Virus record (IMG/VR): IMGVR_UViG_3300042887_002430
Location: 1-64,000 of that record
Origin: a virus
Length of the DNA stretch: 64,000 nt
Direction: 5' to 3' (one strand)
Shown here one piece after another: positions 1 to 58,913 of the stretch (the stretch's first letter is position 1; every line of letters begins with the position of its first letter). The notes under the pieces are model-generated. The model was not told the origin of the DNA, did no database searches, and saw only the letters and a program-made list of their open reading frames with translations. The translations under genes and the position numbers were made by a program.

Positions 1-230
1 ACATGTACTAACATTTTGCTACAAGGGTCTTTAGGTAAAGTACCAGTCAATCCATACCTATGTGCAATATTTGCACCATGGTCAATCAATAAGGATTGTA
101 ATTGTGCTGCTTTAGTCCCATGACAATTGGATACTACGATATTATTAGCAATATAATTATGATTTTTCTTAACTTCTAAATTATATACAATATCAGGTTT
201 ATTAATTTCAGTACGTTTTGTTAATTTCAT
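1..230 (-). CDS. uvsW: UvsW-like SF2 helicase, C-terminal half preceded by split-intein IntC (runs off window edge; absent from ORF track)
   Basis: Manual translation from ATG at 230: MKLTKRTEINKPDIVYNLEVKKNHNYIANNIVVSN|CHGTKAAQLQSLL...RYGLTGTLP. CH completes the DE|CH Walker B; GLTGT is helicase motif III. Confidence 0.93.
   Translation of the reverse strand, partial: MKLTKRTEINKPDIVYNLEVKKNHNYIANNIVVSNCHGTKAAQLQSLLIDHGANIAHRYGLTGTLPKDPCSKMLVH
126..230 (-). mobile_element. Split intein C-fragment (IntC, 35 aa)
   Basis: Blocks F/G: VYNLEV..NHNYIANNIVVSN followed by Cys+1; net basic. Confidence 0.92.
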
Positions 231-235
231 ATTAT

Positions 236-631
236 TTAATTATATTGTTCGTTGAATACAAATACATCATCTCGTTCTACTTCTAAATCGCCATACTGCT
301 TAATTACATCATCCTCGTCATTAAATATTTTGAAACTATAAGAATCGTCTGGTAATGCTTTTAAAAAATTCAATATATCATCATATTTCTCCGGAGGATA
401 ACATACTGAAAAATCTTCATATATTGTTATATCAACGTTTTCATATTCACATCGGGTAACAATATCAAAGGATAATAATAATTCTATATGTTCATCATTT
501 ATTTCGGTATGTGCATCTTCTAATACAATAATTTCAACATCGATATATTCTTTTACGGTCATAATAATTACCTCATCATTTAAAAAATGTGGATAGGATA
601 TAATCCTATCCACCATAATATTACATATCAA
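236..631 (-). CDS. Hypothetical acidic protein (likely start ~562)
   Basis: ORF; GAGG RBS before MTVKEY. Confidence 0.6.
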   Translation of the reverse strand: MICNIMVDRIISYPHFLNDEVIIMTVKEYIDVEIIVLEDAHTEINDEHIELLLSFDIVTRCEYENVDITIYEDFSVCYPPEKYDDILNFLKALPDDSYSFKIFNDEDDVIKQYGDLEVERDDVFVFNEQYN

Positions 632-1100
632 TAGTGTAAGTCAACCCTAAATCGGTTATTAATTTTTGGAAAGATTCGTTCTTTAAAAATATATGTTTAA
701 TTTGCTTATGTGGATGATTTCTATTATTGGTATAGAATTTCAATTGTTTGCCATTATCAAATTCAATAATCAAAACAAATGGTCTATCATATGCTTCACT
801 TTGATATACTTGTATAATAGGCATTTTCGAAATATCTAATGAATATAAAGTATTATTACAATGTGTGAATACTTCTATTCTAATAGGTTTTTCTTTTACT
901 ATCACTTCTTCCCGAATATGATTACATTCCAAATAATCACCATCCAAATTTTCATCAGTATGATGATGATGTGAATCTTCTTCATTATGATGATGTGAAT
1001 CTTCTTCATTATCATCAACTACTACAACTGTTGTCGTAGTAGTTGGAGCAATAGTGGTTGGAGAAATAGTAGTCGTTGTTGTATCTTCTGGTTTGGCCAT
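621..1100 (-). CDS. Hypothetical protein with Thr-rich and His/Asp/Glu-rich N-terminus
   Basis: GAGG RBS; TTTTTISPTTIAPTTTTT and 2x NEEDSHHH. Confidence 0.7.
   Translation of the reverse strand: MAKPEDTTTTTISPTTIAPTTTTTVVVVDDNEEDSHHHNEEDSHHHHTDENLDGDYLECNHIREEVIVKEKPIRIEVFTHCNNTLYSLDISKMPIIQVYQSEAYDRPFVLIIEFDNGKQLKFYTNNRNHPHKQIKHIFLKNESFQKLITDLGLTYTIDM
963..1010. repeat. Perfect 24-bp tandem duplication encoding NEEDSHHH
   Basis: atgatgatgtgaatcttcttcatt at 963-986 and 987-1010. Confidence 0.95.
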
Positions 1101-1138
1101 AAAGTTTACCTCTTGTAAATATAGTTATAAACTAGTAT

Positions 1139-1381
1139 TTACATATATTTTTTAAACTTTATTATGATATTGTTTTGTATACTTTTTTCGCCATCTTTAA
1201 TCATTATATAATCACCATCATTTATTAATTGTTTCTTTCCATTATCATCATATATAAAAGGCATCATTAGCGGGTTACAATAGTGGGGGGATTTTATCTT
1301 TAAATTATCTTTTACAACAAAACCATCTTCCAAACCTACATAATATTTTTCTACTTTATAATGACACATGACAATCCTCAA
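1139..1381 (-). CDS. Hypothetical protein (likely start 1369)
   Basis: ORF with GAGG RBS before MCHYK. Confidence 0.55.
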   Translation of the reverse strand: MRIVMCHYKVEKYYVGLEDGFVVKDNLKIKSPHYCNPLMMPFIYDDNGKKQLINDGDYIMIKDGEKSIQNNIIIKFKKYM

Positions 1382-1449
1382 ATTAATAAAAGACGGTGAT
1401 ATTTATTATATCAAGAATTTTTTAAATTACACCATATTTTTTTGAATGA

Positions 1450-3480
1450 TTATAATCCTATAATGGTTTCATCGTTCAATTCATCTGCACGAATATAACC
1501 ATTATCCGTCATAATCAGATGATTTCCGGTAACTTCTAATACTACACTATTATCAAATTCTAATCTATACATTTTTTCATTATTTGATTTTAATAAATTT
1601 TGATGTTGTTTTACCACTTCATCAATTTCATAATGTCCATCATTATAAGATAATACATTATCACCTACCATAACATCTTTAATTTTCTTATAACTATAAT
1701 CTGCCATAGTAATTAAAGTATCACCATCTAAACATTCATCAACAACCACCATTTGGAATTGTGACATAACATGAGGAACATTCTGCAAGGTTTGCCATGT
1801 TGTGACAATATGGTCATGGTCCAGCGATGGGTTTAACGAATTATAATGGGTAACGTCTAATCCTAACTTTTCAAATTGTTCGACAGTTTGTTTAATCAAG
1901 GTTTTAGCAGGAACAATAGTTAATGTTTTACATCCTAGTTTAGCATACGAATCTACTAATACCGCATTCAGAATAGTGTTATGTGTAATAATACAATCAT
2001 CCGTAATATATAAATGGTCTTTATCCTCTAATAGGATACATTTAGTTTCGTCCATTCCATGATATGTAATAGATACAATTTTACGGTTCTTTGAAATTTT
2101 TCTAATGGTTTCTAAATTATCTGCACGATGTAAATAAAAATGTTTCTTCTTATCCATTATGGTGAAGAATTCATCAGGTTTAGCATGTGAAAAATAAACA
2201 GTAATACCGTATTGTTTATTATAATGTGGTCTATTGTTTAAAGGGTCCAATGTGCCGCCCTGTAATAGTACCATTTCCATTATCTGTTTTCTTAATTGTG
2301 AATGGAATACTAATACATTAATTTGACCATTAACAGAAATCATACCACCAACATCACACATCCCTTGCAAAAACCGTAATCTATCTGCTTGGTCACATAT
2401 AATATATTGTTCTGGAATGGTTTTATTATTGACAATAAAATCTTTTACCGCATCTAATATTTTTTGAGAATAATCATCAGAAGCTGTTAATATTCCACAG
2501 ACATCATCACCAGGAGTAGCCAGGGTTCTGACTTTTAGAATGATTCCATATGGTGCATAAGCATCCATAGCATCCATTAATAATATTTGACTATGACGAT
2601 GTGTACTTGCCGACTGTTCGGTAATAACTAATTTATCGTTCTTTAATTCTACGAATGGCAGAATGCTTCCCGCAAGATAAGGGTCAATATAATATTCATG
2701 TTTACTGAAATTAATAGGAACTGGAATAGATGGAACATAAAAACTATTCTTAGTAGTTTTCATATTATTCATAATCTGTTTAGCAGTATATAAAGAATAT
2801 GGTTCCTTATCATCGGCGTACCATCTACTATTATAAATTTTCCATATATGACCAGAATGGCAATACGTTTCACTACCATCTTCAAATAATACTTTATATA
2901 CTCTGGTAACACCCTGTTCAAAGGTATCCACTACTTGGGTAATAGTATTCTTGGGTGTCATTACCAAATCACCCTTTTTAATATCACCCATAGTAGTCCA
3001 GCCAGTAGGGGTCAATATTTTGCAATATAAGGGCTGTGCTTTGCCAAAACCAGTACCAGCCAATGCAATACCACCACCATGTGTTACCATCGTCTTAGCA
3101 GCCTCTAATTGATGGTCTGTTAGGGTATATGGTTGGTTACTTTTAGTATTAACAATATGTGAAAAATAATCATCTTCAATAGTCGTTGGACATATTTCAT
3201 GAAATGGTGATTGTCTTTCATCAACATATCGAATATTTTTGTATCCCCATTTTTTTAATTTTTTAATAATTTTTGGCAATAAAAATAAATATGTTGCTCC
3301 ATTCTTGGTAAAGAATTGTTTTTTACCATCCCATTTTCCAATTTGATAGGTAGCCACAAATCTATATCCATCCATAAATATTGCATATTCATCTACCAAT
3401 TGGTCAATAACTCCCCTATCCAATCCATAGAATGCACATTTAACTTCATCAAAAATTCGAACTGTTATTTCTTTTGTCAT
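1450..3480 (-). CDS. uvsW: UvsW-like helicase N-terminal half with a cis intein and a terminal split-intein IntN
   Basis: GKWDGK N-domain; Walker A GTGFGK|T interrupted; VVVDE| then intein N-part and TAA stop; next to uvsY/uvsX. Confidence 0.92.
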   Translation of the reverse strand: MTKEITVRIFDEVKCAFYGLDRGVIDQLVDEYAIFMDGYRFVATYQIGKWDGKKQFFTKNGATYLFLLPKIIKKLKKWGYKNIRYVDERQSPFHEICPTTIEDDYFSHIVNTKSNQPYTLTDHQLEAAKTMVTHGGGIALAGTGFGKAQPLYCKILTPTGWTTMGDIKKGDLVMTPKNTITQVVDTFEQGVTRVYKVLFEDGSETYCHSGHIWKIYNSRWYADDKEPYSLYTAKQIMNNMKTTKNSFYVPSIPVPINFSKHEYYIDPYLAGSILPFVELKNDKLVITEQSASTHRHSQILLMDAMDAYAPYGIILKVRTLATPGDDVCGILTASDDYSQKILDAVKDFIVNNKTIPEQYIICDQADRLRFLQGMCDVGGMISVNGQINVLVFHSQLRKQIMEMVLLQGGTLDPLNNRPHYNKQYGITVYFSHAKPDEFFTIMDKKKHFYLHRADNLETIRKISKNRKIVSITYHGMDETKCILLEDKDHLYITDDCIITHNTILNAVLVDSYAKLGCKTLTIVPAKTLIKQTVEQFEKLGLDVTHYNSLNPSLDHDHIVTTWQTLQNVPHVMSQFQMVVVDECLDGDTLITMADYSYKKIKDVMVGDNVLSYNDGHYEIDEVVKQHQNLLKSNNEKMYRLEFDNSVVLEVTGNHLIMTDNGYIRADELNDETIIGL
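1453..1734 (-). mobile_element. Split intein N-fragment (IntN, 94 aa)
   Basis: Block A CLDGDTLITMAD, block B VTGNHLI, ends GYIRADEL..IIGL-stop without blocks F/G; net acidic. Confidence 0.92.
1978..3039 (-). mobile_element. Class 3 (Ala1) intein with degenerate LAGLIDADG domain in UvsW P-loop, 354 aa
   Basis: GK|AQPLYCKILTPTGW...GHIW...TKCIL...IITHN|T shows the W-C-T triplet; FLQGMCDVGG resembles LAGLIDADG. Confidence 0.88.
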
Positions 3481-3534
3481 ATATTTTTTATTATTAGATT
3501 TTAAAAACTGATTATTTAATCATTAGGATAATGA

Positions 3535-3999
3535 TTATGTCATTTCCCATTCTTGAACATTAGCTGTAATTAATTTTGTAAGATTATTTAAATTATAGCC
3601 CCTAGTTTTAAAAGATTCCCTAACCCGTTCAAACTGTCCCCATAATTCATTAACCTTCAAATATTTTTCATACATATCCAAATATTCTTGATTTTGTTTT
3701 ATATATCGTTCAATATCTTTCTGTGCTAACTGTCTATCATAATGCTCAGTATATTTCATCCATAATTGTCCTTGTACTTCATCTAATTTCATCTCCACAT
3801 AATCTCTAATGTTTTTTACTTCAACACCCTTTTGATGATAATAATTAGCCCACCCAGAATGTTCAACATTTGCAAAGTCTATTTGTTTACCTTTTAGTTT
3901 TATAATATCATCTGCTTCCATTAAATCATTTTGGTATAATTCTATTACACTATCTAATACTTTTAAATCTTTCTTTAATACATCAATAATATTTGCCAT
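3535..3999 (-). CDS. uvsY: UvsY-like recombination mediator
   Basis: Helical 154-aa protein, YDRQLAQKDIERYI...FKTRGYNLNNL pattern; between uvsW and uvsX. Confidence 0.7.
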   Translation of the reverse strand: MANIIDVLKKDLKVLDSVIELYQNDLMEADDIIKLKGKQIDFANVEHSGWANYYHQKGVEVKNIRDYVEMKLDEVQGQLWMKYTEHYDRQLAQKDIERYIKQNQEYLDMYEKYLKVNELWGQFERVRESFKTRGYNLNNLTKLITANVQEWEMT

Positions 4000-4017
4000 G
4001 ATAATCTCTCCCTATTA

Positions 4018-4045
4018 AAAGCCCCTCCCGGTAGGGAGGGGCTTT
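4018..4045. terminator. Intergenic GC hairpin
   Basis: aaagcccctccc-ggta-gggaggggcttt. Confidence 0.7.
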
Positions 4046-4051
4046 ATTATA

Positions 4052-5083
4052 TTACTCTACAACTTCCAAATCTTCTAATTCTGCAGATATTTTGAAGAAA
4101 GCATTAGATTTCTCTTCACATAATTTAAGAATTGCTTCGGCATGGTCTTCAAATTTTCCAGATTGGAATTTTACTTCAGGGTCTCCATAAGAATTCCATG
4201 TTCCACCCTTAACAACACCTAATCCAATAGCAGCATCTAATAATCCACTATATTGTGACATTCCTTCATCATAAGGAACTTCTACTGTAACGGTTTGGAA
4301 AGGTTTTGTAAATCTTGTCTTATATCCTTCTACCTTCATACGGATACCAGTAACAGAATCCTTATCTTTCAATTTTAATTTTGAAATCAATACGATTTGA
4401 GAAGCACAATATTTGATAGATTCCGTAACTACCCATTTACCATTACCAGCCATGATTTGTTCTTGATTAGCAGGATATACTTGTTTTGTAAAGATGATAC
4501 TAATATTCAAATTAGAAATCGTGTTCACAAAAGGTTTTAACATGCTTTTCAATTGTTTAGCCTGTTGACCTTGGTCAGCATTACCATCACCTTTCTTGAA
4601 TTTATCATGTTCTGAATTAGTCATCAACATATCAGCACTATCAATAGCAATGACAACTTTCGGAGCATTTTCAAAATCATCTTCATAATCTTCTTTATAT
4701 CCTTTAATAAAGGTAGAGATGATTTTTGTAACATTATCAATAGTTGTAACCCTAACACAATGATAATGCTCAGATGATGTATCAATGCCTATAGCACCAG
4801 CAAAATCTCTATCAAAGGCATTTTCCGAATCTAATACAAAAATCATAGCACCTTCAGATTGTGCTTGTTTTAATACATTAGCTAATAAAAATGATTTTCC
4901 CGCCCCGGAAGCACCAGCAAATGCGGTAATTCTACCTTGTGGCAAAAATTGATGGAAACTCCCACCAATAATTCTATTGATTGTTACATTCCCACTACCA
5001 AACCAATATCTAGGTGGTGAATCATCTGTTGTGACACCATCCATTTTATTCATTGATTTGTGTAAATTCTTCATAAATTGCAT
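4052..5083 (-). CDS. uvsX: UvsX/RecA-like recombinase (start reassigned to 5083)
   Basis: GASGAGKS, LDSENA, IDS, KTRFTKPF; AGGA RBS before MQFMK. Confidence 0.92.
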   Translation of the reverse strand: MQFMKNLHKSMNKMDGVTTDDSPPRYWFGSGNVTINRIIGGSFHQFLPQGRITAFAGASGAGKSFLLANVLKQAQSEGAMIFVLDSENAFDRDFAGAIGIDTSSEHYHCVRVTTIDNVTKIISTFIKGYKEDYEDDFENAPKVVIAIDSADMLMTNSEHDKFKKGDGNADQGQQAKQLKSMLKPFVNTISNLNISIIFTKQVYPANQEQIMAGNGKWVVTESIKYCASQIVLISKLKLKDKDSVTGIRMKVEGYKTRFTKPFQTVTVEVPYDEGMSQYSGLLDAAIGLGVVKGGTWNSYGDPEVKFQSGKFEDHAEAILKLCEEKSNAFFKISAELEDLEVVE

Positions 5084-5164: not shown

Positions 5165-6121
5165 CTATTCAGGTTTATTAGATTTACCACGTAATCTATT
5201 TAACATAGATAACGCATCTTCATCCTCGTCATCATCACTAGACTCTGGAACATATACAGGCTTTTTAACTTTCGGAGCAGGTGCTTCATACTCATCTTCA
5301 TCCTCCGAAAATAATGCAGCAGGTTTTGATGATTTAGTTTCATTAAATGAGGAAACACGTTTTGTAGGTGCTTCATATTCATCTTCATCCTCATCAGCAT
5401 CTTCACGAAGAAATGCTGCCATTTGTTGAACTAGATATGTTTTCTCAGGTTTGGAAGGTCTGATATCTTCTAAATCAACAATATTTTCTTCGATATACTC
5501 TACGACTTCTGGTGATAATTCTGATGGATATTTCTCGAATCTACTTCTGTTATATTCAGCAAAAGATTCTTTACCACGTCCTTTACTTTCAGATTGTGTT
5601 TTTCTGATAACAAAGTTAGTACCATCATCATAAGCATGCGGAGCACTTTCAACATCACCCTCTTTAATAGCAGCTACTAAAGAATCATAAATCTGAGCAC
5701 CTAATGAAACAGTTTTATACAATCCATCATTGTTTTCACCAGTTTCAACATCAACCGGCAATGGGTCTTTTACCACCAACACCTGACCTAACCATGAACG
5801 TTTACGATACATTTGTTTACCACGAACAGAATCTTTACCTTCTTTAGTGAAGAATTCTTGTGAACGTTTGCACATTGGGCAATCTTCACCATATTGTTTC
5901 AAACATGGTATAGACCGTTTTTTACCATCAATAATTAATTCATGTGAATGGTATTCCAGTAAGAACCAAGGATTTTCTTCATTTTTGTCAGGTAAGAATC
6001 TTACTGTAGCCGATTCATCAATTCTCATATTCCAGAAAGGATAACGAGATGAATTATTTCTGGAAATGGGCTTCGTGTTAAGTTTATTTTGTAACGCCGA
6101 TAAGTCAAAAGTTCTAGCCAT
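5165..6121 (-). CDS. gp32-like ssDNA-binding protein (start reassigned to 6121)
   Basis: VRFLP, H..C..CPMC zinc site, YNRSRF, acidic tail. Confidence 0.88.
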   Translation of the reverse strand: MARTFDLSALQNKLNTKPISRNNSSRYPFWNMRIDESATVRFLPDKNEENPWFLLEYHSHELIIDGKKRSIPCLKQYGEDCPMCKRSQEFFTKEGKDSVRGKQMYRKRSWLGQVLVVKDPLPVDVETGENNDGLYKTVSLGAQIYDSLVAAIKEGDVESAPHAYDDGTNFVIRKTQSESKGRGKESFAEYNRSRFEKYPSELSPEVVEYIEENIVDLEDIRPSKPEKTYLVQQMAAFLREDADEDEDEYEAPTKRVSSFNETKSSKPAALFSEDEDEYEAPAPKVKKPVYVPESSDDDEDEDALSMLNRLRGKSNKPE

Positions 6122-7497: not shown

Positions 7498-7805
7498 TGA
7501 ATCTTCCAGATGCTAAGGTTCTATATAATCGTTTAAAAGCATCTGCCAAAAAACGTAATATAGAATTTAATCTTTCCGTTACAGATATGTATCATATAGA
7601 TTATCCATTGACCTGTCCCATTTTAGGAATACCAATGGCTTTTAATCGTGGTAAGGTACAAGATAATTCTTATTCGGTGGATAGGATTGATAATAATATT
7701 GGTTATCAATTAGATAATATTCAAATCATTTCTTATCGTGCTAACATATTGAAGAATAATGCATCCTTAGCAGAGCTAAGGATGCTCTCTCACCATTTTA
7801 ACTAA
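7497..7805 (+). CDS. Small His-Me finger/HNH-like endonuclease-family protein
   Basis: CPILGIP..SVDRIDNNIGYQLDNIQIIS..AN..KN. Confidence 0.7.
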   Translation: MNLPDAKVLYNRLKASAKKRNIEFNLSVTDMYHIDYPLTCPILGIPMAFNRGKVQDNSYSVDRIDNNIGYQLDNIQIISYRANILKNNASLAELRMLSHHFN

Positions 7806-9117
7806 ACAATCTTTCTCTAATGGTATTTAAATCATCATTTACTAATAATTTGCCATTGTGGTAATAGGTAGTAAGATTTAAATCATCGAACCGCCCACCT
7901 TTAGATTTTTTAGCTCTTGATGTAATAGGATTCTTAACAGTATCTACCCATACTCCATTAATCTTCATAGCAGAGGTTTTCTGTGCAAATGAATATGTAT
8001 CTCTGTTAACCTTCTGCAACAATCCACCACCAGAACCATACACTAAGGTTTCAGCAGCATATCCAAGAAGTTCAATCATTGAACATAATCCACCCATAGT
8101 ATCAGTATCAATACCATCACCTTGAATAAGTGAAACATTATTTAATACTTTGAATCCTTTAGAATTTACGGTATGACCGAAATAAGATTCGATGATATCA
8201 ATAACTTTAGGAGCCACTTCATAGGCATCACCACTATCTAATCGTACTACTACCTTAACACCAGATTCAATAATATGGTCTTTTAATTCTTTACATAACA
8301 ATTCAGTATCTCTAAAAATATCATAACCATCTAATACAATAGAAACAATATCACCAGATTTACAACTATTAATAACAGTCTTTAAATAATCTAATTGATT
8401 AGCATCCCCATATGCGCATTGTACACTATGCTCAGTGGCCGGAATTGAAAACCCTGCCATAGATACTCCATAATACTCTTTCGCGGCTCTAATGGCTGGT
8501 AAATCGTCTGTACCTTTAAAATATAATAAATGTGCTAATCCACCAACTTCTGCAGATTCTTCTGATGTTACACCTCTGGAACCAAACGAATGATATGAAT
8601 AAACAATATTTTCAACATTATCAGATGTTCTATCATAAGATTCTTTTAAAATCTTATAATTCTTATAATCATTAGAAGCAATAGTAGAAGGGTACCAAAT
8701 GGCACGTTGCAACCATGTTTCAATATATGATGGTAACCAGAATAATTCATCATCTTCACATTCAATAGTAACAATAGGTGTTGATGATTGTGTTGGCGTA
8801 CCTTCTAATACACCTTTAATAGTGATAGGCAATAATCCATTATATTCATTAACAATCTTCAACCATCCTTCACGGTTAAAAGGCAAACCGTGCAATGGTA
8901 ATAATTCTTCAGCCTCTTCAATATCATCTAATGTAACAGGGGTTAACAAATATTTTTTGATAGCCATTTGTAAACCAAATGGAATAATCGTTTCATTTTT
9001 AACTCTTGCCTCAATATAGGCATATTGTCCAGTAGTATTTTCTGGATACATTTTATAATGACTAGCTTTATAACTATCAGCATTTAAGATTAAATTTGTT
9101 TTCATTTTTATTACCAT
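7798..9117 (-). CDS. nadV: Nicotinamide phosphoribosyltransferase (Nampt)
   Basis: ADSYKASH, FGSRG, PATEHS, RLDSGD, IQGDG, GSGGGLLQKVNRDT. Confidence 0.95.
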   Translation of the reverse strand: MVIKMKTNLILNADSYKASHYKMYPENTTGQYAYIEARVKNETIIPFGLQMAIKKYLLTPVTLDDIEEAEELLPLHGLPFNREGWLKIVNEYNGLLPITIKGVLEGTPTQSSTPIVTIECEDDELFWLPSYIETWLQRAIWYPSTIASNDYKNYKILKESYDRTSDNVENIVYSYHSFGSRGVTSEESAEVGGLAHLLYFKGTDDLPAIRAAKEYYGVSMAGFSIPATEHSVQCAYGDANQLDYLKTVINSCKSGDIVSIVLDGYDIFRDTELLCKELKDHIIESGVKVVVRLDSGDAYEVAPKVIDIIESYFGHTVNSKGFKVLNNVSLIQGDGIDTDTMGGLCSMIELLGYAAETLVYGSGGGLLQKVNRDTYSFAQKTSAMKINGVWVDTVKNPITSRAKKSKGGRFDDLNLTTYYHNGKLLVNDDLNTIRERLFS

Positions 9118-20167: not shown

Positions 20168-22873
20168 TTATCCGGCTGGGGGTGGGGGTGGTGCTCCTCC
20201 CGGTGCTCCTCCTGGTGCTCCTCCTGGTGCTCCTCCCATACCAGCTTCACCTCCCATACCCATATCGCCGCCCATTCCCATGTCTGGACCTGCACCCATA
20301 CCCATACCCATATCACCACCCATCATACCGCCACCCATCATACCACCATCTCCTGGTTGACCATATAATGTTTGTAATGTCTTATCAGCATTGATGGATA
20401 ATCCACGTTCTTCTTTCAACAATTGTTCATTCAACAACATATCAGCTTCTGATAATTGCAAATATCTTTGTAATACAAAACGTTTTGATAATGATTGTAA
20501 ACTATCAGCAGTACCAACCATGCTTAATAATGTATTATCAATTTCAGCTTGTTGATATTGTTTATAACTAGATGGTTTGGGTAATCTAATCTTATATAAT
20601 GCCGGGTCAATATTAATATTACAATGGAACAAGAACTGTTTAAATTCTTTATCTAAAGTATCTTCAATATATACTTGCAACCTTTCTATATATTTTGCAA
20701 ATTGTATTTCTTCAACAAATGCACTACCCATCTTACCATCATTAAACAATGCATTTTTTTCGCCGGGTTTCATATATGATAATGGTACACGTAATCCTCG
20801 TAATACTTTATCAGCAAAATAATCTAAATCAGATTGTTCCCCCAATTGAGAATTCTTTGTAAAAATACCACATGTTAATCCAAATGTATGATAATTATGA
20901 TATTTTTCATCTTGGTCGATAGTTAATGTACCAACATCCATGGTAGAATCTAATACGGTATACTCTTTAACTGTCAACCCATAAGCATGCCAACATTTAA
21001 ATACATGATTAATATCTTCATATCCTAAATGAACTGCCACATTATATAAATGTTGATATTCAATTTTATCTTTAATAACATCATTACAAATATCCATGTA
21101 TAAACATTTGAATTCATAATTATGCATAGAATTCAATACATCGATATATAATGTAGATAAGTTATCATGGTATTCAGAAGAATTATACACATCAGTCAAG
21201 ATATCCAACATATTGATATGGTCATCAGTGTAATCTATCAATATAGGATTATCAATATGATTGTAGTTATAATTAGAGATGATGTTATATAATACCTGTT
21301 TATTAAACAATCCTTTACCAATAATTTTAGTGAATTTATCATCAGAATATAATGAATCAAATACTTTATTAAATGGTAATCCTAAATTAAATAATTGTTT
21401 TACTACATCATAAACATATTCATCATATCGTTTTTTATTATCACGGATTGCATAATCTGAAGGTATTTTTGTATATTGTGTATCATCAATATCATAAAAA
21501 TCAACCACCGTTTCAATATCAATATAATTCTTTAAAACATGGTCAAATATTTGGGTATATTTGTCACCATTATTCCAATTATTTCCAATAATAACATCTC
21601 TTGATGTTAAATCACATGCCTGAACAAATCCTCTATTATGTACAGGGAATTTATGGTCAGGAGTACAAATTATTTTTTCATTATTACTCAATAATAATTC
21701 AACCACTCCTGCACTTTTATGCGTGATACCAGCCCATGATACGATACCAGGTTTTACTGTACCATTTCCAGGATTACAACTTACTACCCAATTTTCAACA
21801 CCATTTTCAAAATCAGTAATCAATTCTGATAAGGTTTTAGATTTACCAGATAATAAATCAATTTTGGTATCTAATGATAAGCAACCACTTTGAAGTACAT
21901 CTACTTTAGAACCAGCACCATCAGCACGTTGGGCAAGATATATATCCTCTAATTGTGATTGAGGATTATAAACACTATCCACACTGGCCTGCCCATTACC
22001 ATTCATAGATGGAATTTTTTTCTGTCTCATTTCATTTTTGACAGTCTCTAAATAGGCTTTGACACGATTAGGTGGCATTTTGCCTACATCAATATAGAAT
22101 ACCCTACGTTCTGGTGCTCTTTGAATTCTATAGATAATGATAGCATCTTCTAATAATTCTTTTTGTTTGTGAGTCTTATACACAGTTCTTAAAACTGATT
22201 CACCAAAAGGGGCACTATCTGACATATCATCATTAATAGAAAATACCACCATATCAGAGGCTAATACTATTTCTGTTTTAATATCTGTTACTGCTCGATA
22301 ATTAGTATTTGCAAATCCATTTGAATTAGCAGGTTCTTTAGAATTAATACGTAATTGATACCCAACAATATTGGTAATATCATGTGCATCTACCACAGCA
22401 CCAATAACATCGGCGGCTGGTACCCATTCCCATTTTTTATATGGTGATTTTTTTCTAAAAAAACAATCTCCATATTTTACAAGATTCCTACTTAATTTAA
22501 ATAATCTATTATCATTAAATCCATGTAGTTCACACCATCGGCGTAATGCTGCATTTAATGTGGTGATTAAAGTATCATCAACTTCTTGTGATTCCTCTTT
22601 AATCATATCTAAGTCTAAAGGAAGATTGGTTTTATTATTCTTACCAGTCATTTCTTCAGCAGTAATATCTAATGCTCTAGCAACCTCTACATCATTATCC
22701 ATTGCATTATATTCATTATATCGTGCTAATCTTGATGCACCACCCTGAATAACTCTATGATAAGAGGTATTACTAATAGCACCATAACTATTGTCTAATG
22801 ACTGATTGTCAGTAACCGTTACCACTGGTTGCGTAGGCGAAGCTATTTTATAAAAATCTGTAATTTTTGCCAT
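20168..22873 (-). CDS. Portal vertex protein (T4 gp20-like) with intein and Gly/Met/Pro tail
   Basis: LLEDAIIIYRIQRAPERRVFYIDVGKMP; DLDYF..KVLRGLRVP.SY; EIQFAKYIERLQ. Confidence 0.95.
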   Translation of the reverse strand: MAKITDFYKIASPTQPVVTVTDNQSLDNSYGAISNTSYHRVIQGGASRLARYNEYNAMDNDVEVARALDITAEEMTGKNNKTNLPLDLDMIKEESQEVDDTLITTLNAALRRWCELHGFNDNRLFKLSRNLVKYGDCFFRKKSPYKKWEWVPAADVIGAVVDAHDITNIVGYQLRINSKEPANSNGFANTNYRAVTDIKTEIVLASDMVVFSINDDMSDSAPFGESVLRTVYKTHKQKELLEDAIIIYRIQRAPERRVFYIDVGKMPPNRVKAYLETVKNEMRQKKIPSMNGNGQASVDSVYNPQSQLEDIYLAQRADGAGSKVDVLQSGCLSLDTKIDLLSGKSKTLSELITDFENGVENWVVSCNPGNGTVKPGIVSWAGITHKSAGVVELLLSNNEKIICTPDHKFPVHNRGFVQACDLTSRDVIIGNNWNNGDKYTQIFDHVLKNYIDIETVVDFYDIDDTQYTKIPSDYAIRDNKKRYDEYVYDVVKQLFNLGLPFNKVFDSLYSDDKFTKIIGKGLFNKQVLYNIISNYNYNHIDNPILIDYTDDHINMLDILTDVYNSSEYHDNLSTLYIDVLNSMHNYEFKCLYMDICNDVIKDKIEYQHLYNVAVHLGYEDINHVFKCWHAYGLTVKEYTVLDSTMDVGTLTIDQDEKYHNYHTFGLTCGIFTKNSQLGEQSDLDYFADKVLRGLRVPLSYMKPGEKNALFNDGKMGSAFVEEIQFAKYIERLQVYIEDTLDKEFKQFLFHCNINIDPALYKIRLPKPSSYKQYQQAEIDNTLLSMVGTADSLQSLSKRFVLQRYLQLSEADMLLNEQLLKEERGLSINADKTLQTLYGQPGDGGMMGGGMMGGDMGMGMGAGPDMGMGGDMGMGGEAGMGGAPGGAPGGAPGGAPPPPPAG
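20852..21883 (-). mobile_element. Intein in portal (344 aa)
   Basis: SG|CLSLDTKI...CTPDHKF...VGTLTID..YHTFGLTCGIFTKN|S. Confidence 0.88.
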
Positions 22874-35083: not shown

Positions 35084-35444
35084 GAATACAATAATTAAGA
35101 TATGAAGATATGATTTCATAATTACATATATAAAAGATGATTCATAGAATTATAATTTACAATGTAGAAAATCATTATAATGATAATAATAATAGTTAAT
35201 TAAAGAAGATAGTAAAATATCATAATAACAGACGATATGATAAAGAAGAATCAAAGGATTCTCCGCAAGCCCCGTATAATAAGGCATGCTGTGAAACGGC
35301 ATTTCGGGAGCATATGCCAATTTTTACATAAAAAATTAAAAATTGTTGCAATTATGTTAAAATATATGATAGGATATACCGATGATTTTTAGGACTAAAT
35401 ATCATGCAAAAACAAAAATTCAAAACCCTTTAATGAGTATTACT

Positions 35445-38195
35445 ATGACAAAACCTATTGATGTGATTAAAAGAGATGGAACCTTAGAACTGTTGGATAT
35501 TAATAAAATCCATACAGTGTTATCATGGGCATGTGAAGGTTTATCCAATGTTTCAGTATCAGACATTGAGATGAATTCAAAAATTCAATTTTATAATAAA
35601 ATCAAATCGTCCGATATTCATAACACCATGATTAAGGCGGCGGCAGATTTGATTGATGAAGAGTATCCTAATTATCAATATGTCGCCTCCAGACTGTTGT
35701 TATTCTCCTTACGTAAGCAAGTATTAGGACAATACGAGCCTATTCATGTAAAGGACCTATATTTAAGGAATGTTGAACTAGGACTATATGAAGATATAAC
35801 AAATCAATATTCAGATGAAGAATGGGCGGAATTTGATAATATTGTTGACCATGAACGAGATTTTTTAATTGCTTATGCAGGTATGAAGCAATTAGAGGGT
35901 AAGTATCTTGTACAGGATAGAGTAACTAAAAAAATCTTTGAAACGCCACAGTATTCATTTATCATGATTGCTGCTAATGTGTTTATTAATTATCCTAAAG
36001 ATACCAGAATGTCATATGTAAAAAAATTATATGACAACCTTTCAAAATTCAATATTAGTTTACCTACCCCTATTATGGCAGGTGTACGTACACCATCTAA
36101 ACAATATTCATCATGTGTATTATTAGAATGTTCTGATTCTTTAGATAGTATCACTGCTACTACTGGGGCTATCATTAAATATATTTCTCAGAAAGCTGGT
36201 ATTGGTTTAGGCGCAGGTTCTATCCGAGCATTAGGTTCATCTGTCGATAATGGTAGAGCAGAACACACTGGAAACATTCCATTCTTTAAATTATTCGAAG
36301 CTGCAGTAAAATCGTGCTCTCAAGGTTCCTTGAGGGCAGGTTCAGCAACCTTACATACAGTAATTTGGCACTTAGAAATTGAAGACATTTTAGTGTTAAA
36401 AAATAATAAAGGTACTACTGAAAATCGGGTTAGAAAAATTGATTACAGTATTCAATATAATGGATTCATCTTGACCCGTTTATTGAGAGGTGAAAAAATT
36501 ACATTATTCTCACCGCATGATGTTCCAGATTTATATGATGCATTTTTCGATGACCAAGATAAATTTGCCGAACTATATGTCAAATATGAAAATAATAAAC
36601 ACATTCGTAAAAAACGTATTGATGCTAATGAATTGATTACTACATTCTTATTAGAACAATTCGAAACCGGTAGACTATATAATATGTTTACTGACCATGC
36701 AAACACCCATAGTTCATTCTTGGAAGAAGTAGCACCTATAAAAATGTCTAATCTTTGCCAAGAGATTACATTACCTACTAAACCGTTTGTATCGTTAGAC
36801 GATACTAACGGTCAAATAGCATTATGTATCCTAGCAGCTATCAATCTTGGTAATGTTAAACAATTATCAGATATGGAAGAATGGGCTGATATTTGTGTTA
36901 GAACCCTAGATGAACTAATTGATATTCAAGACTATCCCTTAGAAGCTGCTAGAATTTCTACTGTTAATAGACGGTCTTTAGGGGTAGGCGTTATCAATTA
37001 TGCTTATTACCTTGCTAAAAATTCAGCAAAATATGATGAATCTGGTTTCGATTTAACCAATAAAACCTTCGAAGCATACCAATACTATCTATTGAACGCA
37101 TCAGTTAATCTTGCAAAAGAAAAAGGTAAATGTAATTGGTTCTACCAAACAAAATATTCTAAAGGCATTCTTCCTATTGATACCTATAAATCTAATATTG
37201 ATGAATTGGTAGGAAAAGATTTACAAATGGATTGGGAATGGTTAAGAAAAGAGATTCTTACACATGGTCTACGAAACAGTACATTATCATCTTTGATGCC
37301 TAGCGAATGTCAATTATATTCTAATAAATTAAATCTAGCCGATGGTAGACGATTAAATTTCCATGAATTATTAGATGATGTTGGGGTAGATTGGGAAAGT
37401 ATCGAAACGTCTGGAATCCCACAACGATATTCATTCTTGAAACCTATTGTTATTAATACTCAACATGGTCCTAAAGAAGCATTTGAATATTACTATAATG
37501 GCTTTATTGATGTTATTGAATTAGAATTCGATGATGGTGAAACATATGGTTTTACACCTAATCATAAATTATTGGTTCTGCAACAAAATGTATCATTAAT
37601 CAATGATATAGAATATACCAGACATTGGGAAAAGGTGGAAAATCTAACGGATGGTCATTTGATTATTTTCAAATCTGACGACCAACATGAATATGGTGTT
37701 AGAACTATTCGTAAAATTACTCATTCTAAAAATCATACATGGGATATCTCAGTATTAGATGGTGAAGAATATATTTTACCAAATGGTATCATTTCTCATA
37801 ACACATCTTCACAAATCAGTAATGCTACTAATGGTATTGAACCTGTATTATCTACTGTTACCACAAAAGGTTCTAAAAATAGTACAGCTAAACAAGTTGT
37901 ACCAGAAGTAGGAAAATTGAAAAACAAGTATGATTATGCATGGAATATGCGGACTAATGATGGATATATTAAGAATGTAGGCATCATGCAAAAATATATT
38001 GACCAAGCAATATCTGCTAACAAGTATTACAATCCTGAACACTGGCCAGATGGCAAGATTCCTATGGATATCCTCATTAACGACTTTTTGAATTCTTATA
38101 AGTATGGTCATAAAACTGCTTATTATTCAAACACTTACGATGGTAGAGGAGAATCGGAGGATGAAGGATGTGAAGGCGGTGCATGTAAAATATAA
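35445..38195 (+). CDS. nrdA: Class Ia ribonucleotide reductase alpha subunit with mini-intein (start reassigned to 35445)
   Basis: ATP cone VIKRDG, SSCVL, SNLCQEI, NGIEP, C-terminal CEGGACKI. Confidence 0.96.
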   Translation: MTKPIDVIKRDGTLELLDINKIHTVLSWACEGLSNVSVSDIEMNSKIQFYNKIKSSDIHNTMIKAAADLIDEEYPNYQYVASRLLLFSLRKQVLGQYEPIHVKDLYLRNVELGLYEDITNQYSDEEWAEFDNIVDHERDFLIAYAGMKQLEGKYLVQDRVTKKIFETPQYSFIMIAANVFINYPKDTRMSYVKKLYDNLSKFNISLPTPIMAGVRTPSKQYSSCVLLECSDSLDSITATTGAIIKYISQKAGIGLGAGSIRALGSSVDNGRAEHTGNIPFFKLFEAAVKSCSQGSLRAGSATLHTVIWHLEIEDILVLKNNKGTTENRVRKIDYSIQYNGFILTRLLRGEKITLFSPHDVPDLYDAFFDDQDKFAELYVKYENNKHIRKKRIDANELITTFLLEQFETGRLYNMFTDHANTHSSFLEEVAPIKMSNLCQEITLPTKPFVSLDDTNGQIALCILAAINLGNVKQLSDMEEWADICVRTLDELIDIQDYPLEAARISTVNRRSLGVGVINYAYYLAKNSAKYDESGFDLTNKTFEAYQYYLLNASVNLAKEKGKCNWFYQTKYSKGILPIDTYKSNIDELVGKDLQMDWEWLRKEILTHGLRNSTLSSLMPSECQLYSNKLNLADGRRLNFHELLDDVGVDWESIETSGIPQRYSFLKPIVINTQHGPKEAFEYYYNGFIDVIELEFDDGETYGFTPNHKLLVLQQNVSLINDIEYTRHWEKVENLTDGHLIIFKSDDQHEYGVRTIRKITHSKNHTWDISVLDGEEYILPNGIISHNTSSQISNATNGIEPVLSTVTTKGSKNSTAKQVVPEVGKLKNKYDYAWNMRTNDGYIKNVGIMQKYIDQAISANKYYNPEHWPDGKIPMDILINDFLNSYKYGHKTAYYSNTYDGRGESEDEGCEGGACKI
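37308..37802 (+). mobile_element. Mini-intein in NrdA (165 aa)
   Basis: MPSE|CQLYSN...FTPNHKLL...TWDISV...NGIISHN|TSSQ. Confidence 0.9.
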
Positions 38196-55208: not shown

Positions 55209-58200
55209 ATGACATATATTAGTGCATTTATGCCAAGGGATGAAAAAGGATTTATTACTGAAGATGTGGTATATGTATATGAATGCATTAATCATAAAAA
55301 TATCTTAAAAAAGTATCCGGCAATCTTTGAATATTATACAAAATCAGAACGTGGACAATATACCAGCATCTTTGGGGAAACATTAACAAAGGTTGTCTAT
55401 AGTTCTACTAGAGAATTTAGAATAGCCAAGAAAGAGGCACTAGAAAATGGGGATAAGTTATATGAATCTGATATTCCGCCAGAAACTAAAGTTCTTATGG
55501 AACATTATTATGGTAAACCTGCCCCAGATTTGAATGTATTATTCTATGATATCGAGGTTGATTATGTTTCCAGAAAGTTTAATGATGCCGATATTGTTAC
55601 TATTCGTGCCAAAGGCGATGATGCAACACATAATGAAGAATTAAAATTAATTAGAGAATTAGAGCCGCAGAATAGGGAACTATTTGAATTATATGATGAT
55701 ATGCTCAAACAATGGGTATCATATGAAGATTCAAGATTCTCCTATATGGGCGAAACAGGATTCTCATCACCATTAAATCCTTATGCCCCTATTAATGCTA
55801 TTTCTATTTTCAAACAATGGTTGGGAAAGTCTATTGTATTAGCAGTTCCTCCGAAAGGGTGGGACATATCTGAATTAGACCAATCATTATCAGAATTAGC
55901 AGAAATTAGATTCTTTAAAACCGAAAAAGAATTATTGATGGAATTCCTTTCAGAATTGGAAGATGCTAATGTATTATCTGGCTATAACTCATCATACTTC
56001 GATGACCCATATGTTGCTAAAAGGGTAGAGATGGTATTAGGTGATTATTTCTTCAAGAAATTATCTATGAAAAAGGCAAATCTTGCCCAATTTAGAGAAG
56101 TGTTTGTTAAGGGTAAAAAACAATTACAAGTACAATTAGGTGGTCGTGCACAGTTAGATTATCTGGAATTATTCAAAAAGTTTGAACAGGCTGAAAGACC
56201 GTCCTATAAATTGGAAGCCATTTCTGCAGAAATTCTACCACATCTAACAAAATTAGAATATACCGGAACATTAGAACAATTGTATCATAATGATTTTAAT
56301 CATTTTTTACGATATAACATTCGTGATACTGAAATCCTAAATGGGTTTGAGCAAAAATTGAATTATATTAAACTTGCTAATGATATGATTCATTCTAATA
56401 CCAGTAACTTTAATAATATTTTTGGTACGGTTAGGGTGGTTGATAATTCTATTATTAACTATTGTCACCATGTTAAAAATGTTATTGTTCCTGATAAATG
56501 GGATACTGCGGATGGTAGTATTCAAGGTGCATATGTATTATATCCTCAAAAAGGTATGCATAGATGGATATGTGCTATTGATATCAATAGTTTATATCCT
56601 TCTGCTATGAGAGCTATTAATATTAGTCCAGAAACCATGATTGGACAGTTTATTGATAATATGAAAGCCTGGAAATGTATCAGTGAACGAGTTGAAATCG
56701 ATTTAGCATTCAAATATGAAAATGGTAGTATAGAGGTAAAAACCACGTCAGAATGGATAGAACTATTCTTAGCAAAGAAATGGGCTGTTAGTGGATATGG
56801 TACCGTATATGACCAGAATGAAGAGGGTGTTATCCCATCGTTATTATCATCATGGTATACATTACGTAAAGAATATCAAGCATTGAAAAAGAAATTTGGT
56901 AACATGTGTGATGAATTAAAATTAGAACATGGTACATTGACGGCTAAACAGTTAAAAGAATATGATGCATTGGATGATAATCATAAGAAAGAATATAAGT
57001 TAAAGAATGCTAAACTATCTAAAGAGAATAAAAAACAATATGATGAATATTATGAAGAATCTAAAAAGAATGACCGATTCCAATATATCTATAAGATTTT
57101 GTTGAATTCTACTTATGGGTGTTTAAGTAATTATAATTTTAGATTCTTTAGATTAGAAGCTGGTGAATCGGTAACAGGTACAGGCAGAATGATTCTAAAA
57201 CATCAATGTAGAGAAGTTAATAAAATGTTAGAAAATAATTATGATATTGAGTTTCCTCTATACGAAAGTAAGAAAGTCATTGATAAAATGATTAAGGTTT
57301 ATAATAAAAAAATGGCAGTTATCCATGCTGAAAATAAACCAGAGGTAGCTGAAGATGCTAGTTTGCATCAATATATTGAAACACTTAACCAAGAATATTA
57401 TCATCCATCATTATTAACACATGATATTGCCTTAGATGGACCAGTGTTTAAAGGAAAATTTACTTCTAAATCAGTTATTTACGGTGATAGTGTTGCTGGT
57501 GATACTATAATTTATTTGTCTGATAGATGTGTATTCATTGAAGATTTAATGACTGATGATATTATCTATCGGGAGGGTAAAGAGTATTGCAATTTAAATA
57601 ATGTTCAAGCATTGACCTATGATAAATTATCAGATACTACTACATTTAGAGATATCAAATACGTCATGAGACATAAATGTGAGAAACAAATGTATCGGGT
57701 ATGGACATCTAATAACAGTTATATTGATGTTACCGAAGACCATAGTTTAATGCATTTTGTTAATGGTGTGGTATCAGAAGTTAAACCATTTGAAGATATT
57801 GGAAAATTAATTTGTGTCAACGGTACAGATACTGTTATTGATACCTTAATATTTGATAGTAAAGATACTGCTATGATACAAGTATTTGATATGCTTAATA
57901 ACGGTCAATATGCCACCGTTACCAGCATTGGAGATATGTTTATGGTTAATTCTGCAAATATTAAATCTGAAAGTATTGGTAAGGATTTTAATACTAGTGA
58001 TGTTTATAAAATTGAAAAAATATCTTACGATGGGTATGTTTATGATATTGAAGTAGATGATACACATGTGTTTTATGCTAATAATATATTAGTACATAAT
58101 ACCGATAGTACCTATTTTGTGGTTCCGGCAAAGGATAAAGAAGAAGCTGTGGAAATGTCAGATTTTATTGCAGAACGGGTGAATAAATCCTATCCTAAAT

Positions 58201-58913
58201 TTATGAAACATGCATTTTTATGTCAACCAGTATTTGATAAAATGATTGCATGTGGTCGTGAAATTGTCGGCGATAATTCTATCTTTGTTAATAAAAAACT
58301 TTATACAATTCATGTAGTTGATAATGAGGGAAAGGCGGAAGATAAGATTAAAACAATGGGGTTAGCTATTAAGAAAACTACCTTACCTAAACCTATTGCA
58401 ACAAAATTAACATCATTTGTTAAACGTTTATTAATCGGTGAAGATTGGTCAACTATTTCCCATGATGTTGTTGATTATAAAAAAGAATTGAAGAATTTGG
58501 ATAATTTATTAGAGATGGGTCTCCCGAAAGGTGTGAATGGATTAGAAGATTATTATAAGAAATATTTAGATGATTCTGGTACTAATCTTCCGGGACACGT
58601 AGCAGCATCTATATTCTATAATATTAATTTAAAAGAATATGCAGATTATGATAATGCTCCGATATCATCAGGTAACAAAATTAAGGTATATTATCTTAAA
58701 AAACCGGAAGGACGATTTAAAGCTATAGCATTGCCTACTGATTTGGAAACTGTCCCAGAATGGTTTACTGAGAATTTTATTAATCGGTTAGATGTTGAAT
58801 TACAGATTTCAAAATTAGTAGATGACCCATTAGAGAGTATCCTTAATGCTATTGATTATAAGGTACCTACCCAACAGTTGTTAATGATGGAAGATGCTTT
58901 CGTCTGGGATTGA
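55209..58913 (+). CDS. Family B DNA polymerase (gp43-like) with intein
   Basis: DIE, GYNSSYFD, YNIRD, DINSLYPS, KILLNSTYG, YGD|TDS. Confidence 0.96.
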   Translation: MTYISAFMPRDEKGFITEDVVYVYECINHKNILKKYPAIFEYYTKSERGQYTSIFGETLTKVVYSSTREFRIAKKEALENGDKLYESDIPPETKVLMEHYYGKPAPDLNVLFYDIEVDYVSRKFNDADIVTIRAKGDDATHNEELKLIRELEPQNRELFELYDDMLKQWVSYEDSRFSYMGETGFSSPLNPYAPINAISIFKQWLGKSIVLAVPPKGWDISELDQSLSELAEIRFFKTEKELLMEFLSELEDANVLSGYNSSYFDDPYVAKRVEMVLGDYFFKKLSMKKANLAQFREVFVKGKKQLQVQLGGRAQLDYLELFKKFEQAERPSYKLEAISAEILPHLTKLEYTGTLEQLYHNDFNHFLRYNIRDTEILNGFEQKLNYIKLANDMIHSNTSNFNNIFGTVRVVDNSIINYCHHVKNVIVPDKWDTADGSIQGAYVLYPQKGMHRWICAIDINSLYPSAMRAINISPETMIGQFIDNMKAWKCISERVEIDLAFKYENGSIEVKTTSEWIELFLAKKWAVSGYGTVYDQNEEGVIPSLLSSWYTLRKEYQALKKKFGNMCDELKLEHGTLTAKQLKEYDALDDNHKKEYKLKNAKLSKENKKQYDEYYEESKKNDRFQYIYKILLNSTYGCLSNYNFRFFRLEAGESVTGTGRMILKHQCREVNKMLENNYDIEFPLYESKKVIDKMIKVYNKKMAVIHAENKPEVAEDASLHQYIETLNQEYYHPSLLTHDIALDGPVFKGKFTSKSVIYGDSVAGDTIIYLSDRCVFIEDLMTDDIIYREGKEYCNLNNVQALTYDKLSDTTTFRDIKYVMRHKCEKQMYRVWTSNNSYIDVTEDHSLMHFVNGVVSEVKPFEDIGKLICVNGTDTVIDTLIFDSKDTAMIQVFDMLNNGQYATVTSIGDMFMVNSANIKSESIGKDFNTSDVYKIEKISYDGYVYDIEVDDTHVFYANNILVHNTDSTYFVVPAKDKEEAVEMSDFIAERVNKSYPKFMKHAFLCQPVFDKMIACGREIVGDNSIFVNKKLYTIHVVDNEGKAEDKIKTMGLAIKKTTLPKPIATKLTSFVKRLLIGEDWSTISHDVVDYKKELKNLDNLLEMGLPKGVNGLEDYYKKYLDDSGTNLPGHVAASIFYNINLKEYADYDNAPISSGNKIKVYYLKKPEGRFKAIALPTDLETVPEWFTENFINRLDVELQISKLVDDPLESILNAIDYKVPTQQLLMMEDAFVWD
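57489..58100 (+). mobile_element. Intein at polymerase motif C (204 aa, no intact endonuclease seen)
   Basis: YGD|SVAGDT...VTEDHSL...VYDIEV..HVFYANNILVHN|TDS. Confidence 0.92.

Follow-up and report, generated by a model that had tools for sequence, protein, structure and literature searches.

Evidence for a naturally split intein at the DECH box of a fractured uvsW helicase gene in an uncultured T4-like phage

The uvsW locus and its two halves

The stretch of DNA analyzed here, referred to throughout as the window, comprises the first 64,000 nucleotides of the IMG/VR virus record IMGVR_UViG_3300042887_002430, and our subject is a uvsW helicase gene near its left end that is encoded in two halves, each of which carries one part of an intein. 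Both halves lie on the minus strand, 1,219 nucleotides apart. The N-half gene (1450..3480) encodes 676 amino acids (aa) and a stop codon, and consists in order of a first N-extein segment, a contiguous intein in the Walker A loop, a second N-extein segment and the N-terminal part of a second intein (IntN); its C-terminus reads FQMVVVDE/CLDGDTLITM...EVTGNHLIMT...LEVTGNHLIMTDNGYIRADELNDETIIGL-stop, where the slash marks the predicted junction here and below, and its tail is DETIIGL. IntN (1453..1734, minus strand; 94 aa) contains block A (CLDGDT) and block B (TGNH), and is followed by the stop codon at 1450-1452. The C-half gene begins at an ATG at 230 with the C-terminal part of the intein (IntC; 126..230, minus strand; 35 aa), the sequence of which is MKLTKRTEINKPDIVYNLEVKKNHNYIANNIVVSN, with block F VYNLEVKKNHNY, block G IVVSN and the end NHNYIANNIVVSN. 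It continues as CHGTKAAQLQ...YGLTGTLPKD, so that the start of the C-extein (1..125, minus strand) supplies the CH of DECH and then motif III before it is cut by the contig end: window position 1 is the end of a 92.5-kilobase (kb) IMG/VR contig, estimated by CheckV to be 26% complete, and only 41 C-extein residues are therefore visible in the window.

An initial annotation, made from the letters and a list of open reading frames (ORFs), had described an ORF at 1450..3480 that stops after VVVDE/CLDGDT...IIGL, with a 94-aa IntN of 18 acidic and 8 basic residues, and 1.2 kb from it a second gene, starting at ATG 230 with a 35-aa basic IntC that ends in VVSN and runs on into CHGTK...GLTGT; all of this was found as described. 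The charge complementarity that it had invoked is also present, IntN having 18 acidic (11 Asp, 7 Glu) against 8 basic (6 Lys, 2 Arg) residues, a net charge of -10, and IntC 6 basic against 3 acidic, a net charge of +3. The search for Hint domains that it had recommended gave a Pfam Hint match to N-half residues 580-664 (E 1.1e-7; 32.2 bits, over the cut-off of 29.7), while positions 125-155 of the 155 in Intein_splicing matched IntC residues 5-35 with E 7e-5, which falls under the cut-off because the IntC piece is short. Scanning the entire contig with these Pfam families likewise recovered both pieces.

Judged by its sequence, the host gene is a UvsW-type superfamily 2 (DExH) helicase, with the N-terminal domain and motifs I, II, III and VI in order. 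Pfam matches on the N-half are UvsW_N (26.3 bits against a cut-off of 25.3), ResIII, DEAD and Hint, and the N-half matches PHROG 16259, “DNA helicase,” with E 7e-44. N-extein segment 1 (3040..3480, minus strand; residues 1-147) ends in the Walker A sequence GTGFGK, of which T143, G146, and K147 are invariant in an alignment of N-half relatives, and is collinear with the helicase of the Asteriusvirus EJP2. N-extein segment 2 (1735..1977, minus strand; residues 502-582) starts with T502, which completes GKT, and ends in VVVDE, the first half of motif II (DECH); its ratio of non-synonymous to synonymous substitution rates (dN/dS) relative to the related contig L005 is 0.014. Contigs L004 and L005 supply the whole C-half, of 295 aa with a C-extein of 260 aa, and this aligns to T4 UvsW (PDB 2oca) residues 232-465 with E 1e-10, starting exactly from the DE-CH of T4. 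Removal of both inteins in silico yields a protein of 488 aa that is collinear, across GTGFGK/T and VVVDE/CH, with the intein-free EJP2 helicase (494 aa) and likewise with the spliced UvsW of Salmonella phage S16, and in which GKT, DECH, GLTGT, and QQIGRGLRK are all there; the earlier expectation that ligation would give DE-CH followed by motif III agrees with these alignments. Neighbors at the locus are a UvsY-like gene, UvsX/RecA and gp32, in the same order as in Asteriusvirus jumbo phages, and a megablast search with positions 1-3500 against a phage collection gave zero matches.

The residues that would carry out the splicing chemistry are strongly conserved. C583 stands directly after VVVDE and is invariant in 10 relatives; with T651, G652, N653, and H654 of IntN, and N35 and C36 of the C-half, it remains invariant in alignments of relatives down to 33-50% identity, and the block F His (H24, in NHNY) is invariant among relatives too. 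The intein is only distantly related to those with solved structures, the closest matches of IntN being Spl DnaX (7cfv; E 1.6e-4), Npu DnaB (4o1r; 6e-3), and NrdJ-1 (8ubs; 0.045). The co-fold of the two fragments suggested in the initial annotation, performed with N-half residues 573-676 and C-half residues 1-50, gave an interaction prediction score from aligned errors (ipSAE) of 0.73 against 0.00 in the best of three controls, and thereby passed a mark that 58 of 80 solved complexes attain, as do 2 of 110 mismatched pairs. Between runs, at least 87% of the contacts agreed, the predicted local distance difference test score (pLDDT) of the partner was at least 68, and IntC residues 1-37 were all in contact. 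Because split-intein complexes have been solved, such a pass indicates likeness to solved complexes and is not proof of binding; at the level of the model, IntN and IntC may associate into one Hint domain. Taken with the sequence conservation, these results support the assignment of IntN and IntC as a naturally split intein, broken at the canonical site and inserted at the DE/CH box of a UvsW helicase.

Relatives of the split gene and the DE/CH intein family

The initial annotation had read the locus as a fractured uvsW, and the layout is indeed shared by contigs from other samples. L004 (98% identity) and L005 (90%), from other metagenomes, each have a 676-aa N-half, three small ORFs and a 295-aa C-half; the L017 lineage has a like layout plus one extra small ORF; and L006/L007, at 41% identity, have a 716-aa N-half, a single 118-aa ORF and a 280-aa C-half whose IntC ends VVAN/CH. 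Ten lake or freshwater metagenome runs, with no RNA data set listed among the sequencing runs, contain half or more of the words sampled from window 1-1800, and a 6,088-bp contig from one lake-metagenome run spans that interval unbroken with 14 substitutions, which answers the concern, raised in the initial annotation, over the assembly of positions 230-1450. One apparent joint of 189 to 1585, in run X1, was rejected, since its short side comprises just 22 letters and loose ends occur on either side of it, and was taken as belonging to a contig of another organism. RNA splicing had been named as another way in which the halves might be joined; an Rfam scan of 1-3600 at E<=1 revealed no intron, the sole match being a chance snoRNA (E 0.35). 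Relative to the 90%-identical L005, dN/dS is 0.115 for IntN (at a dS of 0.66), 0.01-0.07 for the exteins and 0.08-0.19 for the ORFs in the gap. Given the conserved layouts and the low dN/dS, IntN, the exteins and the gap ORFs are maintained coding sequences, and an assembly artefact, a pseudogene and joining at the level of RNA are therefore each very unlikely.

The comparison of L004 with L005 revealed a further feature of the region. Their flanks are about 100% identical, with 80-92% identity across a 4.1-kb block (L004 2080-6200, or about window 100-4220). This block takes in the UvsY-like gene, all of the uvsW N-half and the gap genes, and on its right it stops within IntC, of which it includes the first third. 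The window matches L004 on the left and L005 on the right; judging by these identities, the region is mosaic through recombination, and a breakpoint falls within the split intein.

Word-indexed searches returned just seven relatives for IntN and one for IntC, and an exhaustive search was therefore used, in which 22 aa of extein plus IntN were compared with 1.84 billion cluster representatives (50%-identity clusters). It yielded 1,292 matches at E<=1e-3. Among the best 150 of these 1,292, split N-halves with only 92-127 aa after DE/C account for 102; nine are contiguous mini-inteins of 134-143 aa that end VVSN/CH, VVHN/CH or VVAN/CH, 15 are longer forms, and 24 have no recognizable DE/C junction. 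The two longer forms that were checked with Pfam, P0043 and P0090, are in-frame fusions that encode UvsW-N, IntN and a NUMOD3/TnsA-like endonuclease in one frame without an IntC, and such fusions may represent a state between an intein that bears an endonuclease and a gene already fractured. The contiguous mini-inteins P0018, P0023, P0028, P0038, P0042, P0132, P0159, and P0161 occupy the same site as the window intein and have homologous blocks, several of them with VVSN/CH, and P0018 (982 aa) also shares the second, upstream intein with the window gene. They form one polypeptide with a linker of 10-20 aa, in place of which the window gene has a stop codon, then 1.2 kb of DNA, then a start codon; the break in the split forms coincides with this short linker. 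A tree of 131 IntN regions, calculated by a quick method, had support for only 11 of 128 branches, and at this low resolution the scattered contiguous forms could reflect many transitions or few.

The split gene is also present in cultured phages: Salmonella phages S16, STP4-a, SEA1, and CF-SP2 and Proteus phage PM2 have a split uvsW with a homologous intein at DE/CH, the pieces of which are annotated only as “helicase” and “hypothetical protein.” In S16 (gp114 / gp114.1 / gp115; HQ331142), its relatives and PM2 the insertion site is that of the window (..DE/C...TGNH...stop; Met...NHNY...N/CH), IntN and IntC are homologous to those of the window with 41-43% identity over IntC and the start of the C-extein, and the halves fall in PHROGs 16259 and 9690, which the window halves match too; in effect these two PHROGs are the families of the N-half and the C-half. 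The S16 gap holds a single 291-aa gene with weak NUMOD3 and TnsA-like nuclease matches, and PM2 likewise has an endonuclease-like gene between the halves, whereas the window gap holds three small genes. The S16 uvsW also differs in having no Walker A intein and a penultimate His in place of the Ser of the window intein. The split arrangement is thus of a known kind, and the window copy is one member of a very large family rather than singular; particular to it are a gap of three conserved small genes without an endonuclease and a second intein in Walker A.

An IntC-like match in Campylobacter phage CJLB-12 was set aside from this family as belonging to a fractured nrdA and not to uvsW. In that phage (MW074125; L024 994-4154) the N-part of nrdA ends in a Hint N-piece and is followed by two unannotated ORFs, and the C-part begins MIKITKK...GLCVHN/CE; all pieces are annotated as hypothetical proteins.

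The cyanobacterial DnaE split intein (Npu/Ssp) is split at the canonical site into an acidic IntN and a basic IntC, with Cys at +1, and the Npu form ends in Ser-Asn. The window intein resembles it in each of these features, with no detectable close sequence relation between the two; the DnaE halves are encoded at distant places of a cellular genome and interrupt another protein at another site. In the portions of the searched literature that were available, we found no description of UvsW together with a split intein, and literature on UvsW with an intein, or on uvsW with a homing endonuclease and a split, as far as it could be seen, did not describe the arrangement; the UvsW DE/CH family is apparently not yet described. 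Split inteins are widely used tools of protein engineering, of which only a few dozen natural pairs have been characterized. A large natural family at a single site of one helicase, present in cultured phages such as S16, is a source of candidates for orthogonal pairs with Cys at +1, and its split, contiguous, and IntN-endonuclease fusion forms, occurring side by side, are material for studying gene fracture and the origin of split inteins; what matters is the family, as a resource and an evolutionary series, rather than this single copy.

The gap between the halves and the interpretation of the split

Three genes, all on the minus strand, fill the space between the two halves. Gap gene 1 (1139..1369; 76 aa from its ATG; dN/dS 0.08) is conserved in L004, L005, and L017, and upstream of it a TGnTATAAT-like -10 element, TGATATAAT, can be read from the sequence of the same strand. 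Gap gene 2 (621..1100; 159 aa; dN/dS 0.19) has a Thr- and His-rich N-terminus. Between it and the next gene stands a terminator-like element, an 11-bp hairpin followed by a T run (589..613, minus strand), the stem of which is kept in L005 with substitutions confined to the loop. Gap gene 3 (236..562; 108 aa; dN/dS 0.14) is very acidic and is conserved in L010-L013, and the ATG of the C-half lies 5 nucleotides past its stop codon. The gap genes found no family match in Pfam at E<=10, in PHROGs or in the protein Atlas, and BLASTP gave nothing below E 0.1 when they were compared with S16 gp114.1 and with the endonuclease tails of the fusions; with no Pfam, PHROG or BLAST link from any of the three to nucleases, we found no endonuclease gene between the halves. 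AlphaFold2 models were of low confidence (pLDDT 52 for gap gene 3 and 43 for gap gene 2), and a resemblance of gap gene 2 to IntN around EFDNG was rejected, hhalign giving it a probability of just 9%. The T4 late-promoter motif TATAAATA was not found on the minus strand of 1-4100. The gap also varies among relatives by insertions and deletions: a 74-aa ORF lies right after the N-half in L017 (3715-3939), a truncated remnant of it is seen in L005 (about 5170-5230), and neither the window nor L004 has it.

Fractured genes with split inteins have been catalogued in hosts that include gp41, IMPDH, DnaE, NrdA, NrdJ, ligase, and terminase (Dassa et al., 2009; PMC2677866), and the window has much in common with those loci (gp41-1 to gp41-8, NrdJ-1, IMPDH-1, NrdA-2, and others). 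In both, the interrupted gene belongs to phage DNA metabolism and is broken at a conserved catalytic motif; the N-part with IntN and the IntC with the C-part form separate genes on one strand at one locus; the intein is split at the canonical site into fragments of about 100 aa (IntN) and about 35-40 aa (IntC); and the gene just ahead of the C-half has a hairpin upstream of it. Locus gp41-7 has no endonuclease either, as in step III of the model proposed in that study, so that an endonuclease between the halves is typical of the class and not obligatory. The window differs in its host gene, uvsW being outside the eight enzyme types listed there, in a gap filled by three conserved non-nuclease genes, and in an intein with Asn at block F position 4 (F:4) and a penultimate Ser.

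From the sequences and the structural model together we consider that this is a genuine fractured uvsW of an uncultured T4-like lake phage that very probably undergoes protein trans-splicing. Once translated, the acidic IntN and its basic IntC partner would dock to form one Hint fold, and splicing would follow the class-1 pathway, with an N-S acyl shift at Cys1, attack by the +1 Cys and cyclization of Asn35; the resulting peptide bond from Glu582 to the +1 Cys would restore the DECH ATPase motif. Splicing of the Walker A intein in cis would restore GKT, and the outcome of the cis and trans events combined would be a UvsW of about 488 aa. Because the N-half also contains this contiguous intein, each helicase should require one cis and one trans splicing event, which for phage biology would mean a core recombination helicase dependent on both. 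In terms of the gene-breaking model of Dassa et al. (2009; PMC2677866), the locus corresponds to a stage at which the free-standing homing endonuclease has been lost and the hairpin kept, the space left by the endonuclease being occupied by three small conserved genes.

Several observations weigh against trans-splicing. The terminator-like hairpin separates the halves, which might thus be made in unequal amounts; the C-half in the window is cut by the contig end, its completeness resting on near-identical contigs; F:4 is Asn (VYNLEV) throughout the family, in contrast to the Asp of gp41-1, NrdJ-1, Npu DnaE, and Spl DnaX; and Ser occupies the penultimate position, at which His is found in most inteins. 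The last two could favor a non-covalent clasp, in which IntN and IntC dock with their chemistry impaired and the helicase works as two chains without ligation; the co-fold supports docking and is silent on chemistry, and the NrdA of Aeromonas phage Aeh1 functions as a non-spliced split enzyme (PMC3045599). We nonetheless judge a clasp improbable, since Cys1, TxxH, the F-block His, the Asn and the +1 Cys are all intact and invariant, which a mere clasp would not constrain, and since an unspliced product would keep 129 extra residues in motif II. The deviations at F:4 and at the penultimate position (Ser here, Ala in L006, His in S16) are family traits shared by contiguous relatives: the contiguous mini-inteins at DE/CH share YNL and VVSN, yet interrupt DECH, and so must splice for a working helicase. 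Such residues are tolerated in active inteins, Mxe GyrA having Ser at F:4 and Npu DnaE ending in ASN.

Two further explanations dispense with a functional split intein. Were uvsW a decaying gene, broken by a mobile element and with its pieces heading to loss, no functional helicase would be made; the missing homing endonuclease and the insertions and deletions in the gap, where the 74-aa ORF of L017 persists as a remnant in L005 and is absent in the window, could be read in this way, but purifying selection on IntN and the exteins is strong (dN/dS 0.01-0.12 at dS 0.5-0.8), the layout is retained to 41% identity and in more than 100 clusters, and the helicase motifs are all intact, which makes decay very improbable. 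That the split is only apparent, through an assembly artefact or through RNA-level joining by an intron or trans-splicing, is scarcely credible: the one point in its favor is that the C-half is cut off by the contig end with which the window terminates, and against it stand the layout in five other assemblies from different samples, an Rfam scan without an intron, a gap of three genes under purifying selection, an IntN that ends at a stop codon and an IntC whose ATG follows the preceding gene's stop by 5 nucleotides.

A more speculative extension of the trans-splicing reading, which we think rather unlikely, is that the split has been co-opted as a timing device, with the halves in different transcription units and the two inteins acting as an AND gate at the level of protein. 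Separate units are suggested by the promoter-like TGATATAAT after the N-half, the conserved hairpin and the close spacing of the C-half ATG behind the stop codon of gap gene 3. T4 UvsW, when active, switches replication from an origin-dependent to a recombination-dependent mode; if the timing device were real, active UvsW would appear only once both units were expressed and the cis-splicing intein had fired.

The Walker A intein and other inteins in the window

The contiguous intein in the Walker A loop (1978..3039, minus strand) measures 354 aa and reads GK/AQPLYCKILTPTGW ... TKCILLEDKDHLYITDDCIITHN/T, its junctions being GK/AQPLY...IITHN/T. Its boundaries were set by alignment with intein-free homologs and with N-halves of 317-324 aa that have no intein at that site, and its dN/dS is 0.06. 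Class 3 inteins are marked by a triplet of Trp (B:12), Cys (F:4), and Thr (G:5), and their first residue need not be a nucleophile. Inspected by eye, the Walker A intein has a Trp (in GHIW), a block F Cys (in TKCILL), a block G Thr (in IITHN) and Ala as its first residue, and these hallmarks look class-3-like. LAGLIDADG was not recognized in its central region; the homolog in L006 has Cys first and clear LAGLIDADG motifs.

The phage is rich in inteins. Three other genes in the window contain contiguous ones, bringing the intein elements in the 64 kb to five: those for a T4-like portal protein gp20 (20168-22873, minus strand), the ribonucleotide reductase large subunit NrdA (35382-38195, plus strand) and a family B DNA polymerase (55209-58913, plus strand). 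The window also encodes a nicotinamide phosphoribosyltransferase (NAMPT/NAPRTase), an auxiliary gene of NAD salvage, at 7798-9117 on the minus strand.

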